Made by a program: the position numbers and the translations under genes
From: Mobula hypostoma
Lineage: Eukaryota
Direction: 5' to 3'
Length of the DNA stretch: 64,000 nucleotides
NCBI RefSeq assembly: GCF_963921235.1
Contig: NC_086108.1
Span: 35,404,001-35,468,000, forward strand
The notes under the pieces: generated by a model
The model's database searches: none
What the model was told of the DNA's origin: nothing
What the model saw: only the letters and a program-made list of their open reading frames with translations
Shown here: positions 53,593-63,499 of the stretch, one piece after another
Layout: every line of letters begins with the position of its first letter
How positions within the stretch are numbered: the first letter of the stretch is position 1

Positions 53593-54659
53593 GCTGCGGA
53601 CTGGTTCCAAAAAAAGTCAATTCCACCACCTCCTTGACAATGTGAAGAGTCCTCAGCATTTAATACCAATGCCAACTTGTTTTGGATTCACCTACATTAA
53701 TGCTCTGGAACTACCTTTCCCTCTCACAGCTTCCTTCCCATTCCTCGTATCCAAAATCTATCCAAGTTCCCTTTCTACTTCCATGATCTTACCTCCCATG
53801 TCTCCATCACTCTACACGTTCATACAGCAAACACTGGGACAGGAATGGAGCAGTCCCTAGAATGACTCTGGAGCTAGGAAACTAAGAGCAACCGCACCAC
53901 CAATTTCATCTCTGAGAACTATTGCAGGTCTCCACAAGTTCTGTCCTTTAAATCCTGGCTTTTGTACGTGTATCTCCACAGAGATGTGTAGACATGAGAG
54001 TGGGGTCCCTGCAAACCCTAGGTGGAAAAGATAGCACCGATCTGCGGTCTTCGTTGAGGTCGCGGCTCAGACTTAGTTATTTTCAGAGGTCTTCTTTTGG
54101 CTCGTAGGGATGGTTTGTGGGGTGATGGGGGGCAGGAGTTGAAAGGTCAGGTTATGGTTTAGGGACAGGGATGTGGGGGGAATTGGAGGACAGGCTGGTA
54201 TTTAAGCCTCTGCTCTGTGTTCAAAGGCCAGTAGCAAGGGACTGCTTAAAAGTTGGACTGGCAGACCGGCAAGGATGTTTGGGTCCTGTCATCATTGAGA
54301 CTGAAGTTCAAGGCCTACTTTTTAGGTCCCATCATCAGTGAGCCCGGCATTTGAGGCCTGGAGTTCTGCCCCTTATCCAGGGTCCTCATTCAACATTATC
54401 TGCAAGTCCTGGATCAATACCGAAGGTCGAAGCCCAAAAGTCAATCAGAAGTCTGGATCAAAGAACGAAGGTTGATTGGAAGTCCAGATCGAAACCTGAA
54501 GGTCAATCAGAAGTGCGAAAGTCAAGGCCCAGTGTCGAATCTCTGCGGGCCATTGGGAAAGTTGGGGGCCCAGTGTCTGAGGGTCCATGAGTTCACTGGA
54601 GGCTGGAGGCTGAAGATGGACTGTGCTTATGTGTGTGTTGGGGGGGAGGCTTTGCTTTT

Positions 54660-54838
54660 GCTGCTTGGTATGTTCTGTGTTGTTTACATTATAGTATTGC
54701 TATGTTAGTGCTGGAATATGTGGTAATAATTGCCCTCCCCTGCAAATTCATGAGTGCGTTGGTTGTTAATGCAAATGACACATTTCACTGTATGTTTCGA
54801 TGTACATGTGATAAATAAATCTGAATCTGAGACTGAAT
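54660..54838 (+). mobile_element. Non-LTR retroelement 3' tail (family uncertain, possibly Rex/Babar-related)
   Basis: T-rich 3' region ending ...catttcactgtatgtttcgatgtacatgtgataaataaatctgaatctgagactgaatc, i.e. AATAAA followed by a short (TCTGAA)-like tail. Confidence 0.5.
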
Positions 54839-55059
54839 CAAAAGTCTGCAGGTGGAAAAATATGTTGAAAACACTCAACAGATCAGACAACGTTCGTGGA
54901 AAAAAGTTGAAGGCACTTAGGTCAAAGAACTTCATCAGATAGTTGGATAAGATTTGGGCAATTGTCTTACTTAGCTCACCTCAAGATTTCCCAGGACTGG
55001 CCATGACATCTCCGATACCTCTAGTCCATCCCTATGCAATCCAGCCAATATTGGGCAGA

Positions 55060-55593
55060 GGCACATCCCATTCCCATTCCGATAAGTCAATCCATGGCCT
55101 CCTCTACTGTCGCGATGAGGCCACACTCAGGTTGGGGGAACAAACCTTATATTCCATCTGGGTAGCCTCCAACCTGTGCCGTGAACATCAATTTATCGTA
55201 CTTCTGGTAATGACCCCACTGCCCTCTTGTTCACCAGTCCCCATCCCCTTTTCCTCTCTCACTTTATCTCCTTGCCTCCCTCTGGTGCTCCTCCCCTCCC
55301 CCGTTTCTTTCTTCCATGGCCCCTTCTATCCCCACCTATCAGACTCTCCCTTCTCCAGCCCTGTATCTCTTTCACTAATCAACTTTCCAGCCCTTTACTT
55401 CACCCCTCCTCCTCCCGGTTTCACCTATCACCTTGTGTTTCTCTCTCCCCTCCCCTGCCTTTTAAATTTACTTCTCATCTGCTTTTTCTCTCCAGTCCTG
55501 CCAAAGGGTCTCAGCCCAAAATGTCAACAGTACTTTTTCCCACCGATGCTGCCTGGCCTGCTGAGTTCCTCCGGCAGTTTGTCTGTGTTGCTT
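55060..55593 (+). mobile_element. Penelope-like element 3' fragment (GIY-YIG C-terminus and pLTR)
   Basis: TSHSHSDKSIHGLLYCRDEATLRLGEQ.. matches the 57,204 copy (YCKDEATLRLEEQHLIFRLGSLQP). Ends gatgctgcctggcctgctgagttcctcc...tgtgttgctt and contains a decayed hammerhead motif at ~55,494-55,530. Confidence 0.88.
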
Positions 55594-55944
55594 ATTGGAA
55601 GTCTGTTTTGAGTGAAGAAGGTGCAAAGAAGAGTTAGTATTAAGTGTGAACAGTGTGTAGAGTAAGAGTCAAGCTCATGGAGGCCAAATGACATGTTTGA
55701 AGTGGAATTGACCCTTAAATTGGAAAGTTTTAATAAGTACAGCCTGTTCTATGAGTAAGCAACAAGAGTTGCATTATTGCTGGTATCATTGGGGCAGGTT
55801 TCACACAGTAACTATGATGCTAATTCTAGTTAATCTGGGATCATCTGTTCTGTGCTGCCATGAGACCCATAAGCAGTCACAATTTTGCTAATATCATTTT
55901 CAAGTGCATGCATTGTATCCTGCAGAATGAATTTCTAGGCCACA

Positions 55945-56040
55945 ACTGAAGATTGGCATCTCTGACCATGCAGTACTCCCTCAGTACTGCACCAGAGTGT
56001 CACCCTAGATATTGAGGTCAAGCCCTTCAATAAGGTCTCC
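55945..56040 (-). mobile_element. Deu-domain SINE relic (SacSINE1-like)
   Basis: ggcatctctgaccatgcagtactccctcagtactgcaccagagtgtcaccctagat resembles the reverse complement of the chondrichthyan Deu-SINE segment as recalled (GGCACCTCCGACAGTGCAGCACTCCCTCAGTACTGCACTGGAGTGTCAGCCTAGAT). Confidence 0.7.
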
Positions 56041-56712
56041 AAGCTTTTTCACTCAATAACTCAAAAAGCTTGACATTGTAGTTGGAGACCACCCACAAGC
56101 CCTCACTATATTTGAGATTGTGCACTACTCTGAACTTCCTCCCTGTCACCTCACAGATTATCTATCTAATAGGTTCCATATGAAACACATCCACCAATAT
56201 TGCCCCACTCTTGCCCCTTTTAGTGGGGTCCCCATTTCACGAAGCCCCTTCACAAGTTACCTAAGAGAACTGAGTCTGCCCTGTGACTGTGGCTGAGACA
56301 TTCCCATGCTGAAGAGCTCCTGGTTTGCAATTCATATCGTCACCTTTCTCTCAGGTTAGACTATCAAAATCCAGAGACTTTTCTTATACAACTGGTGGGT
56401 GTCATGGGATAGTTGCTGTGGCTGTAGTAGTAGTTAGTGGTGATATTCCTCCACCACCCAGTCAGCCACTCGCACATGGGAGGAGTTCACATACTGTGCA
56501 CGCAGTGCTATCAATAACGCTCAGTTGAATATTTTGCAAGGTTGGCGTTCGGGTGTCTCTGCACTCTCCCTCAATATTGAACGCAACAGTTGTGGGCTCT
56601 GAGTGCAAGTTGGCTGAAAAGGAGTGGAAGCAACAATGCTGTTATTTAAGCAACACACATCAAAGTTGCTGGTGAACGCAGCAGGCCAGGCAGCATCTCT
56701 AGGAAGAGGTGC

Positions 56713-56748
56713 AGTCGACGTTTCAGGCCGAGACCCTTTGTCAGGACT
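56713..56748 (-). ncRNA. Hammerhead ribozyme motif with a core mutation (CUGACAA)
   Basis: The reverse complement reads AGTC-CTGACAA-AGGGTCTCGGCCT-GAAAC-GTC-GACT, identical to the right-arm motif except G8>A. Confidence 0.65.
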
Positions 56749-57605
56749 AACTGAAGGAAGAGTGAGTAAGGGATTTGAAAGTTGGAGGGGGAGGGGGAGA
56801 TCCAAAATGATAGGAGAAGACAGGAGGGGGAAGGATGGAGCCGAGAGCTGGACAGGTGATTGGCAAAAGGGATACGAGAGGATCATGGGACAGGAGGTCC
56901 GGGAAGAAAAACAAGTGGGGCGGGGGGACCCAGAGGATGGGCAAGGGGTATATTCAGAGGGACAGAGGGAGAAAAAGGAGAGTGAGAGAAAGAATGTGTG
57001 TATAAAAATAAGTAACAGATGGGGTACGAGGGGGAGGTGGGGCATTAGCGGAAGTTAGAGAAGTCGATGTTCATGCCATCAGGTTGGAGGCTACCCAGAC
57101 GGAATATAAGGTGTTGTTCCTCCAACCTGAGTGTGACTTCATCTTTACAGTAGAGGATAGTCTGAGTCAAAGTGTGGTCGAAAAGTTGAAGAGCCGAAGA
57201 AAATCTACTGTAAAGATGAAGCCACACTCAGGTTGGAGGAACAACACCTTATATTCCGTCTGGGTAGCCTCCAACCTGATGGCATGAACATCGACTTCTC
57301 TAACTTCCACTAATGCCCCACCTCCCCCTCGTACCCCATCTGTTACTTATTTTTATACACACATTCTTTCTCTCACTCTCCTTTTTCTCCCTCTGTCCCT
57401 CTGAATATACCCCTTTCCCATCCTCTGGGTCCCCCCCCCTTGTCTTTCTTCCCGGACCTCCTGTCCCATGATCCTCTCATATCCCTTTTGCCAATCACCT
57501 GTCCAGCTCTTGGCTCCATCCCTCCCCCTCCTGTCTTCTCCTATCATTTTGGATCTCCCCCTCCCCCTCCAACTTTCAAATCCCTTACTCACTCTTCCTT
57601 CAGTT

Positions 57606-57641
57606 AGTCCTGACGAAGGGTCTCGGCCTGAAACGTCGACT
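57606..57641 (+). ncRNA. Minimal type I hammerhead ribozyme motif in the Penelope pLTR
   Basis: AGTC-CTGACGA-AGGGTCTCGGCCT-GAAAC-GTC-GACT. Conserved CUGANGA and GAAA boxes, a stem II hairpin, a GUC cleavage triplet, AGUC/GACU stem I and a palindromic ACGU in place of stem III. Confidence 0.75.
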
Positions 57642-58244
57642 GCACCTCTTCCTAGAGATGCTGCCTGGCCTGCTGCGTCCACCAGCAATTTTCATGTGTG
57701 TTGCTTGAATTTCCAGCATCTGCAGAATTCCTGTTGTTTGCGTTTAAATGCTGTTATTTAACCTTATTCCGTCTTGGGCCAACAATTGGCACACACAGTT
57801 TAGTACAAAAGGAGAAATCCATCTCTCTACACGTACATAATGCTTATCCTTCTAATCCTTACATCCTGGATGTTCCTTACTGTCCCAGCCCCAGCCTTTT
57901 CTTCAAATGGTGACTATCCCCCTTTAAAATGTGCAATAAAGGACAAGAATTTCGAAGGACATTGAATACTGAATTGATCAGTATCTCTATTTACCGATAC
58001 TTAACCACTCCCTAGCTGAATCCTTATGTATGCAAAGGATCCAATTAGTTCTGTTCTGTTAAGCATTATGATGAGGCATGCTATGAACAGGGGACGGACT
58101 TTGTTGTCTTTTTATGGAGTTGTGTGCCAACTGACAGAACAGTACAGGATCGAGTAAAAAAAACTCACTTAGCTACCTGATTGTCAGAAAATGAATAAAA
58201 AACTAGCTTGAACAATTATCTTGTTTGCTATGTGCTCTGTGATT

Positions 58245-58490
58245 CTGATGCTGAGATATTCTCACTAGTGGGAGAGTTACAAATCAGGGAACGTAGCTGA
58301 AAAATAAGGGGTCAGTTACTTAAAATTGAAGTGCATAGAAGTTTCATCTCCCTGAGCATAATGAAACCTTGGAATTCTTTATTACTTAGGGTGGTGGAGG
58401 CCAGATCATTAGTTATGCTTAAGATGAAGATTGATAAATATATGAAAGGTCAAGAAATTTAGGGTCCTGCTCCTATTTTCCTGCATTCTT
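58245..58490 (+). mobile_element. Old CR1 LINE 3' fragment
   Basis: gatattctcactagtgggagagttacaaatcaggg...aaaataaggggtcag...ttggaattcttt...ggtggtggaggcc...ttaagatgaagattgataaata...cctgctcctatttt, colinear with the 50,250-50,575 CR1 end. Confidence 0.7.
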
Positions 58491-58558
58491 ATAATCCAAC
58501 TGAAATTGAAACTTTGCCTAAATACTAACAGCATAGTCAGTGTGATTCTTTTTTTCAG

Positions 58559-58692
58559 TCCGCCTGGTGAAAAACTAGTGGGATTGATGATTCTATGTAT
58601 TGATGTGTCGCCAAAACTCCCTTAGCACAGTGACAATGCTTCAACAGGAGCTTCAACAGGGGAATTCTATCTGCGTTTCTAATATTTCTGTG
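58559..58692 (+). other. Candidate exon A of an unidentified spliced transcript
   Basis: Perfect branch point TACTAAC (58,523-58,529), acceptor ttctttttttcAG, donor TG|GTAAGG. There are stops in all three frames before an ATG at 58,636. Confidence 0.35.
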
Positions 58693-59021
58693 GTAAGGTC
58701 TCTTTCTCAACTGCACTGTCGATGTATTTCCAACAATTAAACAAGAAAGTCCAAGGCTTCTGTTTAATTTGTGGTTAGATCTGTCCTGTGTGACTGTAAA
58801 ACAACACCGGGGAACTTCGAGGTCATTGACTGGTTGACGTTTTGTGAAGTCTTGATCTAAACTGCTAGAGGTGGTACGTTAGCAACTATTGACTTCCTGT
58901 CTGTTGCTGGCCTTTAGCCAACACAGCAGAAAGATGCTGTGTGCAAGCAATTCTTGGCCATTGGGTTCTACTGAGCTAGCTCAATAAATGCATACCATTC
59001 TCTAATCTTTCTTTCACACAG

Positions 59022-59117
59022 GATATATGGTGAAGAACTGCTGACTTCCATCAGAATGATGAGAGAGATTTGCACCAGTATTCTTCATCTTCTGCATGTT
59101 TAGTCTATGCCCTACAG
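59022..59117 (+). other. Candidate exon B (96 nt)
   Basis: Acceptor tctCTAATctttctttcacacAG (branch-like CTAAT plus polypyrimidine tract) and donor CAG|GTACAG. It lies in non-repeat sequence and no frame is fully open. Confidence 0.4.
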
Positions 59118-59137
59118 GTACAGCTTGAAATAACAAA

Positions 59138-59297
59138 TAGGAATATCAGAAATAAAAGCAGGAGCAGTATAATCAGTTCTTCACACTTGTTCCACCATTC
59201 AGTGAGATAATGGCCCTCCTTTTTCCTGAATCACAATCTCTTCCGCTAATCCCAAATCTCTTGATTTACTCACTATCCAAAAAACTATTGATTTTTT
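59138..59297 (-). mobile_element. Old CR1 LINE tail, reverse orientation
   Basis: cagaaataaaagcaggagcag...cttgttccaccattcagtgagataatggc...tcttgatt...tatccaaaaaactattgat is a degenerate reverse complement of the CR1 3' end. Confidence 0.5.
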
Positions 59298-59765
59298 AAA
59301 TTGTTCCATGTGCCAAGGTACAGCAAAAAAACTTCGCTTTGCATGCCATCCAGGTGAATCATTTCAAATCATAAGAACGTCAGGGTACTATGAAGGGAAA
59401 GGCATTAACAGAGTGCAGAATATGGCGTTACAGTTACAGAGAGAGTGCAATAAGGCACGAGGGTCATGACAAGGTAGGTTGTGAGGTCAAGAGTTCATCT
59501 TTTTTGTAAGAGAAGTTTGTTCAGAAGTCTTATTATAACAGTGGGATAGAAGCTGGCCGAGCCTGGTGGTGTGTGTGTTTCAAGCTTTTGTATCGTCTGC
59601 CTAATAGAAGCAGCTCAGGGGGTGCGGGGGGGGGGGGTGGTTGATTATGTTAAATGTTTTCCTGAGGTAGCAGGATATGTAGATAGTGTCCATGGAGGGG
59701 AGACTGCCTTCCGTGATGGACTAAGCTGCCTCAACAACTCTCAGCAATTTCTTGCAATCTTGGTT
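59298..59765 (-). mobile_element. Rex/Babar-type LINE 3' fragment
   Basis: The minus strand encodes QDCKKLLRVVEAA*SITEGSLP, similar to the Rex1/Babar RT C-terminal region (.DRKKLQRVV..AQ.IT...LP), followed by a 3' region running toward 59,298. Confidence 0.7.
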
Positions 59766-60226
59766 AGAACTTTGACCCTGAGTATATTTGATGAGTAGGC
59801 CCGAGCAGTTAACTTGGGCAGGGAATTTCAAGTATTCGTTGCACACGTGGTGAAGAAGTATAAGATCAAAGGCACCATGGAATCTCAGGTGATAATCTGT
59901 GAGAACAAGCAAGGATTTTGGTTCAATGTCTGCCCTCCAGTGATGTAGCATCTTCTCAGTACCATGTTTGTCTGTCAGCCCAGATTTCATGTTCATCACA
60001 TGAAGTTTTACCTGTTTGTGGCAGAATGGCCAACCTTCAACTGAAGCTGTTGAGCAAATGTACACAAGAAAGGGCTTGGTAGCTGGTGCAGTTCAGGTCT
60101 TCAATTAGAGCTCCCTGCAGGCTCCAGGCCTTGTCACCGGTGAGACCCTAGTGTTACTGGCCGTCACTGTCACAGGCAGGTGGACAGATAGTAGTGTGAT
60201 GCCTTCTGCCTCTTTTCATTCCCTAG

Positions 60227-61835: not shown

Positions 61836-62414
61836 ATATACATTCCAACTTAACAATTGAGCACAATTAGCCTTGCTATTATTCCTCACCTCAGTTTCCA
61901 GAATTGTCAGGTTTTTATTGCAAACCCTTGCTCATTATATAGTTTGAAGTTAGTGGAGGAAACTGCAAAGAGAAAATGCAGGTAATTTCAGAGTTAACTT
62001 GGAGTGATAATTTGACACAGATCTGAAACAGATCGCATGCCACTGTTGTACAGAAATCATTTGTTTTACACCCAAAATGGGAACAGGATCAATTCACTAG
62101 TTACTCAGTTTGGTAGTTCTCCCCTTTTCCTGGTAACAGAGCACATCTTTAGAGTCGTGGAGGGGGGCGTGTTCCCACTAATGTACGTAGGAGGTGACTG
62201 TTAACTGAAATAACCAAATTAGAATGTGGTCAAACCAACTATTCATAGCAAAGCTGCACTCCATGTGATAGCAATCATGCGTTGGATGAACAAATCATGC
62301 ACAAGGCAAGAATTTTGAAAATAACGGAACATGGGGCATACTTGAACATTGTAATTTAAATCAGTGGTCCCAAATAAATTCCATTCCACTCTAGGCATAT
62401 TCCCCTCTGTGACC

Positions 62415-62636
62415 AGAGACACAAGTGATACCGCAGATGCTGGAAATCTGGAGGAACGCACACAAAAGGCAAGAGGAACTCAATGCTTCGGGCAGTGCCT
62501 GTGGAGGAAAATGAGCAGTCGATATTTCGAGCGAGACCTTTCATCAGGATCTAACATCCTGAACTGGCAACTGTTCCGTTTTCTCCTTTGATGCTGCCTG
62601 GCCTACTGAGATCCTCCAGCGTTTTGTGCGTGCTCC
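62415..62636. mobile_element. Short foldback element made of two opposed Penelope pLTR ends
   Basis: The left part (gcagatgctggaaatctgga..acacaaaa..gaggaactca..ggcag) and the right part (gatgctgcctggcctactgagatcctccagcgttttgtgcgtgctcc) are imperfect reverse complements. A minus-strand hammerhead-like motif CTGATGA...GAAATATCGACT lies at ~62,517-62,550. Confidence 0.7.
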
Positions 62637-62727
62637 CTCCACGACCTCCAACTAAACCTGCTAACACCGACTTTCCGAGATCCAAGTCTGTTCTCAGTAG
62701 ATCCACTGTTTCAATAATTCAATGAAT

Positions 62728-63014: not shown

Positions 63015-63135
63015 ACTGGTCCTGAAGAAGGGTCACGGCCTGAAATGTTGACTGTTTATTCATTTCCATTGAGTTCCTCCAACATGTTGTGTGTTTTGCT
63101 TTGGACGTCAGGCATCTGCACACTTTCTGGTGCTT
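63015..63135 (+). mobile_element. Penelope pLTR fragment with hammerhead-like motif
   Basis: ggtc-ctgaaga-agggtcacggcct-gaaat-gtt-gact (63,018-63,053), then gagttcctccaacatgttgtgtgttttgctt...gcatctgca. Confidence 0.75.
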
Positions 63136-63499
63136 ATGTTACTGTTCAAGAGGCCTTGTTGCACACTGTCTTTTCAACCTCGTTTCAGAGCTGGACCGCA
63201 AAATGTTCTGTATTAGGAATCAAGGGCACTGGTATTGACACACTCTCCCTCGGATCTGTCATTATCTTCTCAAGATAGATTCTGTGCATGGTTAAATAAT
63301 GTAAGGATAAAGTTAATTATGTAAAAACATAATTTTTAATGTCACATTGTTTTAATCTCAGATTAAACTGCTGTACTAGACACCTATTTGACAATACGAC
63401 ATTCAGAAGAACCACAACTGAAACTCCCACCCGATGTCTGCTTCCTGTCTCCTCTTTCACCTGGAGTCTGCAAAATGTACTGCTGAAATTATTGAGCCA

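Follow-up and report, generated by a model that had tools for sequence, protein, structure and literature searches.

The 36 nucleotides at 57,606 to 57,641 on the plus strand of the Mobula hypostoma sequence analysed here (a stretch of 64,000 nucleotides, hereafter the window) form the hammerhead motif of a Penelope-like element (PLE). We consider it probable, at about 0.88, that a single insertion left this motif behind as a passive relic, with no cleavage to be expected in any RNA made from the locus, and that the G8>A change in its mirror copy, in the left arm of the same insertion, is CpG decay.

Results

Letter-by-letter reading of the core confirmed an earlier note's claim of a complete minimal type I hammerhead: every core position is present at 57,606 to 57,641, and the coordinates and plus strand are correct. 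C3 lies at 57,610, G8 at 57,615, G12 to A15.1 at 57,630-57,633, C15.2 and G16.2 at 57,634 and 57,635, and U16.1 at 57,636. C17 falls at 57,637, so the predicted cut follows that position. The core matches CUGANGA ... GAAA ... UH throughout. Stem I comprises 4-5 bp, stem II 4 bp including two G-U pairs (or 3 bp in an alternative register), and helix III is indeed reduced to the self-complementary palindrome ACGU (57,633-57,636). An extra A at 57,617 stands between positions 9 and 10.1 and is followed by a G-U pair at 10.1-11.1. Both arms carry U at 11.1 (57,629 in the right arm); stem II therefore opens either with a G-U wobble after the unpaired A typical of the family or, in the register of the earlier note, with an A-U pair, and is weaker than the consensus in both arms.

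The mirror copy occupies 56,713 to 56,748 on the minus strand. Comparison of the two motifs revealed a single difference in 36 letters, G8>A at 56,739, which lies within a CpG as the CpG-type transition proposed earlier would have it; the left-arm core departs from the pattern at G8 only. The right-arm motif is situated 297 nt 3' of the endonuclease stop at 57,313, on the sense strand. A minimal-hammerhead descriptor returned one match in the 14.7 kb of the window outside a satellite array and none in 200 dinucleotide shuffles; the motif is not a chance occurrence. In the model search that the earlier note had proposed, Rfam returned eight matches across 54,000-60,000 at E <= 10, and none was a hammerhead; two, to miRNAs, merely reflect the inverted repeat. 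A search using a spurious translation across the motif found no match. The sequence features of the PLE minimal type I hammerhead are present, as had been recognised, and catalysis is a putative property.

Judging from its protein relatives, the element in the window is the 3' end of an EN+ PLE with a predicted C-terminal GIY-YIG endonuclease. The right arm retains the last ~36 codons and stop of this ORF (57,203-57,313, plus strand; tblastn, P0002 residues 337-371, 77%) and the left arm the last ~37 codons and stop (57,045-57,158, minus strand; P0002 residues 336-372, 78%). The nearest named relatives of the remnant are from rays, namely P0001 of Mobula hypostoma (89%) and P0002 of Hypanus sabinus (78%), giving 77-89% identity overall. 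In both proteins the RT motif YIDD is accompanied by a C-x4-C-x2-C linker and by a GIY-YIG domain that Pfam matches weakly (E 5e-4 and 2e-3, below the cut-off). A further 85 longer relatives, mostly RT-bearing and 740-1,150 aa in length, were found; the full-length relatives contain RT together with GIY-YIG. Within alignment A1 of the homologs the linker cysteines C239, C244 and C247, which lie beyond the truncated window copy, are invariant. The homologs therefore carry the CX2-5CxxC linker of the Neptune clade, a feature that marks Neptune and Nematis elements alike (PMC8557442). Indirect support for a Neptune affiliation comes from one related locus (L005), whose motif is identical to the published Acropora digitifera Neptune motif (supplement of PMC4209133); this evidence points to a putative Neptune-type element and does not separate Neptune from Nematis.

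Pfam analysis of three short ORF remnants gave nothing relevant, and pattern scans for the family 3' end found none in genome contigs and none in metagenome contigs. A single pattern match on a phage-like contig (L001) was judged to be chance, and no relatives were found in viral contigs. Some predicted ray proteins have absorbed pieces of the repeat: P0001 continues into its 3' UTR, and P0003, which bears the name neuromedin-U receptor 1, has the C-terminus of the endonuclease at its end. These two and P0105 are probably gene-prediction artefacts.

We took 90 loci encoding relatives, comprising the best 80 of 285 metagenome candidates and 10 others. A core-only pattern that did not require stems was run over 800 nt past the ORF in the 44 loci having an ORF end and at least 300 bases after it. 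This gave 21 sense matches against 1 antisense, compared with 0.09 per shuffled set. The extra A after A9 is present in 21/21 of the sense cores and G10.1-C11.1 in 20/21, and the motif lies 93-300 nt from the ORF in the relatives. In 11 aligned rows, 95% of the stem cells are paired and 25 cells have changed on both sides, a pairing count reached by 0/500 shuffles and above every slid control. Covariation of stems I and II, which the earlier note had put forward as a check on the motif, is thus found across families. As the 11 rows had been chosen by a stem-requiring descriptor, the core-only scan carries less risk of circularity. The variants listed for the window's own family are single-site only. 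Ten of the loci (L082-L091) are PLEs within bacterial MAG contigs, most likely contaminating host-animal DNA.

The two motifs are embedded, ~860 bp apart and on opposite strands, in a ~510-bp inverted repeat whose 3' ends point outward. The left arm (56,650-57,157, minus strand) is a 5'-truncated, tail-less PLE 3' end containing the endonuclease C-terminus, 3' UTR and hammerhead. A 46-nt spacer (57,158-57,203) separates its truncated end from that of the right arm (57,204-57,746, plus strand), which was delimited by inverted-repeat comparison; relative to the element, the arms are truncated at 5' positions no more than 3 nt apart. The right arm extends 40 nt past the end of the left, and this extension (57,707-57,746) is the Penelope tail, placed by comparison of the arm ends and by a drop in family depth. 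The whole unit is flanked by an AT-rich, 15-bp target-site duplication, the longest exact direct match near both ends, with copies at 56,635-56,649 and 57,747-57,761. An inverted 5'-truncated copy, a one-sided tail and a target-site duplication are therefore all observed, as in PLE insertions; same-strand tandem units each with a complete hammerhead, the feature of non-LTR retrozymes, are absent from the window. The spacer gave no informative match within the window or among the relatives' proteins. A depth bin containing part of it stands at ~1,700 times the flank in sequencing run X1, so the spacer may derive from a different repeat or from the 5' part of the element itself.

Other repeats accompany the unit. 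Positions 1-49,310 consist of a 42-bp C-rich satellite (~1,176 copies, 87% matches) whose plus-strand frames hold few stops (82-110 per frame) and no open frame over 923 codons. At 62,403-62,646, flanked by a 9-of-12 duplication, a related Penelope 3' end forms another head-to-head pair, which is older. This second pair bears a tail on the minus arm only, both of its cores have decayed, and both arms start at hammerhead stem I around a short palindromic junction. Three more decayed Penelope 3' ends with damaged hammerheads are found at 55,060-55,593 (plus), 53,190-52,580 (minus) and 63,018-63,140 (plus), the copy at 55 kb stopping, without a tail, at the point where the left arm stops.

The window's Penelope family is very abundant. 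When contigs from four runs were aligned to the right arm and flank only, the summed depth over the motif in run X1 exceeded the flank depth ~1 million-fold, a figure which is not a copy number. In run X14, presumed to be RNA, the motif bin reached 0.8 million, which is not an expression measure; contigs of this run leave the unique right flank uncovered, and no accumulation of ends was among the results listed, but as contig data these are no evidence either way. Family depth drops ~25-fold past the 57,708-57,738 bin, i.e. after the tail, and family letters upstream of 57,204 appear as loose ends. At 57,629 (position 11.1), U accounts for 71-82% of family depth and C for 18-29% in the four runs. 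Being the majority letter, U is not this copy's own decay, and copy-specific CpG decay was ruled out on that ground; a new variant was likewise ruled out, as 8 of the 56 published rows carry G-U there (PMC4209133). The right arm holds minority letters at no fewer than five positions (57,309, 57,416, 57,679, 57,689 and 57,693), so it too has drifted. In two organisms, A and B, contigs connect the tail to the same right flank, their overlap with the element being 25 and 27 letters (under the 31-letter bar of the method), which suggests that the insertion may be shared by both.

Folding predictions for the motif were unfavourable to activity. In the fold predicted for the isolated 36-mer, the cleavage strand is paired to G5-G8 (z = -0.37), and the active hammerhead shape is not the preferred one. 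The probability of stem II in right-arm-only transcripts is at most 0.001. A transcript across both arms is predicted to form a ~500-bp hairpin of -1,084/-1,086 kcal/mol (plus/minus), in which stems I and II have probability 0.0 and arm pairing 1.0. The active dimer was modelled at -11.5 kcal/mol; two monomers reach -22 and the best duplex -30.3. Nearest-neighbour energies take no account of the core, tertiary contacts, Mg2+ or help from protein, so inactivity is a prediction only. No same-strand partner with an intact core was found nearby; the second copy being on the opposite strand, the motif has no dimer partner at this locus. Self-cleavage of plus-strand transcripts after 57,637, which the earlier note had entertained, is thus predicted to be unlikely, and the right-arm monomer is not expected to cut.

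The arms differ at 11/501 aligned sites, plus indels. Differences affect 4/12 CpGs, of which the right arm has lost three and the left arm that at G8. At the observed rates of arm divergence, the probability of at least one difference in 13 core bases is 0.50, or 0.44 without the G8 event, so that arms differing in the core are about as likely as not. Inverted matches were present in 16 of the related loci, from which 10 were dropped as unrelated palindromes or for having no readable motif or end. The remaining 6 of the 90 (best 80 of 285, and 10) are Penelope inverted units of the same anatomy, and a duplication of 13-16 bp can be read in four. Both cores are intact in one unit (L005), both are defective in four (L013, L062, L065 and L081) and one is defective in the last (L006). 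L013 carries the same G8>A in one arm and a different core change in the other.

Discussion

The arrangement of an intact ribozyme opposite a disabled twin had suggested a built-in off switch, whereby the right ribozyme stays active, its left twin is disabled, and transcription reading through from the left blocks cleavage, such that the transcription start site decides whether the RNA gets cut. Sequestration itself stood up: the modelled hairpin abolishes the hammerhead fold, with arm pairing at 1.0. The off state is, in these models, real as physics, yet a by-product of any inverted insertion. It is symmetric and would operate without G8>A, since the left arm is antisense in a plus-strand transcript and the change is irrelevant to sequestration. 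Nor is there a predicted on state, given a stem II probability of at most 0.001 even without the left arm and the absence of an intact partner on the same strand. In favour of the switch, an intact right core faces a left core with G8>A, and G8 is needed in a Penelope hammerhead, as G8C abolishes activity in the Anolis element (PMC11167929). Such asymmetry, however, is what neutral decay would produce by chance about half the time, and only 1/6 of the related inverted units pairs one intact with one defective core, revealing no on/off rule. Selection may have acted on the right-arm core, which stayed intact. Were the switch real it would constitute a naturally antisense-gated ribozyme; nothing here points that way, and we regard it as highly improbable.

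Activity in trans is somewhat less improbable, while still unlikely. RNA whose transcription began within the insertion, or which otherwise included the right arm but not the left, might pair its ACGU with RNA of another family copy and, helped by the element's protein, undergo cleavage after 57,637. Such cutting would amount to biochemical noise and would have no regulatory role. The complete right-arm core would permit it, and a trans dimer is possible because the family is very abundant and occurs in contigs of the presumed-RNA run, at a depth that does not measure expression. Protein-assisted cleavage is also known for the Anolis element (PMC11167929), and the G-U pair at 10.1-11.1 has its counterparts among the published representative motifs (PMC4209133). 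Against this, the active dimer is predicted to be ~10 kcal/mol less stable than two misfolded monomers, published dimers cut weakly (PMC4209133), and the Anolis RNA-seq is reported to contain no reads starting or ending at the cleavage site (PMC11167929). We consider it scarcely credible that the pair results from a fold-back error of the assembly or from a later duplication at the locus, and not from one retrotransposition. Inverted repeats do trouble assemblies (PMC8557442), and no contig among those listed spans the inner junction. The arms nonetheless differ at 11 sites plus indels, only one has a tail, a perfect 15-bp duplication flanks the whole unit, and contigs of two organisms join the tail to the same flank, albeit below the 31-letter bar.

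We therefore favour the passive relic. In an active source element, the motif would cut after GUC only as a dimer, helix III then being formed by the ACGU of two tandem copies, probably with help from the element's protein. Published work is consistent with this: monomers gave no cleavage and dimers and trimers low cleavage (PMC4209133; the dimer work of Lunse et al. is summarised in PMC6765202), and the Anolis motif is described as cutting only with the element's protein, cleavage being dispensable for insertion in vitro (PMC11167929). At the present locus, a transcript running through both arms would be made antisense arm first and would zip into the ~500-bp hairpin, burying the motif on either strand. 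The product would more likely be taken up by RNA silencing or editing than act as a regulated ribozyme. By analogy with A. vaga, where antisense small RNAs arise from most Penelope families (PMC3846280), a small-RNA fate may be the likelier outcome for such a hairpin.

As to how the pair arose, we tentatively propose, at rather short of even odds, that a dimer of the Penelope protein nicked the two strands 15 bp apart, that each nick primed reverse transcription at one of the sites bounding the tail, and that the products were joined via the 46-nt spacer as a captured filler. Both cDNAs would then have reached nearly the same 5' point, 3 nt apart, and one arm would end at each of the two start sites. 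Precedent exists in the Anolis protein, a predicted dimer that cuts and extends both strands and whose two start sites bound the tail (PMC11167929). A pure fold-back of one cDNA would fail to account for one of two features, the tail or the three extra 5' bases; two-nick priming would cover both. In the second window pair and in related inverted units the tail is on one arm, never both, and one related family provides 0/7 two-tailed units. We did not find this model spelled out in the literature searched, where self-priming on an antisense template has been proposed instead (PMC3846280); the palindromic junction of the 62.5-kb pair also fits the latter. Unequal arms with the tail on the short inverted arm were observed in L005, L006, L062, L065, L069 and L081, together with L013. 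A rule placing the tail on the shorter arm (6/7 units) cannot be claimed from a biased ascertainment, the 11 loci that carry the tail on the ORF arm having shown no partner in the sequence examined.

The motif and the back-to-back layout are already published (PMC4209133, PMC8557442, PMC3846280). As described by Cervera and De la Pena (2014, PMC4209133), PLE minimal hammerheads share with the present motif the core, the extra nucleotide between 9 and 10.1, a short stem I, the palindromic 15.2-16.2 and the location in a 3' repeat. Opposite-strand pairs ~100-700 bp apart were reported there, as was a second opposite-strand copy at an element's 5' end. The window differs in the ~860 bp between its motifs and in having U at 11.1, a minority variant in that survey; even a U-U mismatch at 10.1-11.1 occurs in natural hammerheads (PMC3088659). 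Neptune-type EN+ PLEs (Craig et al. 2021, PMC8557442) resemble the window element in the C-terminal GIY-YIG, the 5' truncation, and the adjacent inverted truncated copy with a 30-40-bp tail at one end, and share the CX2-5CxxC linker with its nearest proteins; the hammerhead of Acropora digitifera Neptune has the same layout as the window motif. Here, by contrast, only ~37 codons survive and the arms are almost equal in length. A short target-site duplication has been described for PLE insertions (PMC3846280).

Poseidon of Anolis carolinensis (Frangieh et al. 2024, PMC11167929) likewise has the C3/G8 hammerhead core, an AT-rich target and two 3' ends ~40 nt apart that bound the tail, but belongs to a different clade, with a motif that overlaps the ORF start. 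Non-LTR retrozymes (Li et al. 2026, 10.64898/2026.07.22.740005), reported in one chondrichthyan, similarly contain a type I hammerhead from Penelope repeats; they are same-strand tandem repeats, whereas the window unit is an inverted pair with an ORF remnant. Our literature search found no paper on the window's Penelope family.

In the 56 aligned motifs and Table S1 of the 2014 survey (PMC4209133) we found no cartilaginous fish, and the present motif extends minimal hammerheads to a ray genome not found in those lists. As one relic of a very abundant family, the single locus matters little. Its clean anatomy, with a duplication, one tail and matched truncations, means that such pairs are usable as a genome-scale test of PLE integration. 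If two-ended priming is true, one mechanism would explain both the inverted pseudo-LTRs and the one-sided tail, and the ribozyme of each such insertion would be enclosed in a hairpin from the outset.
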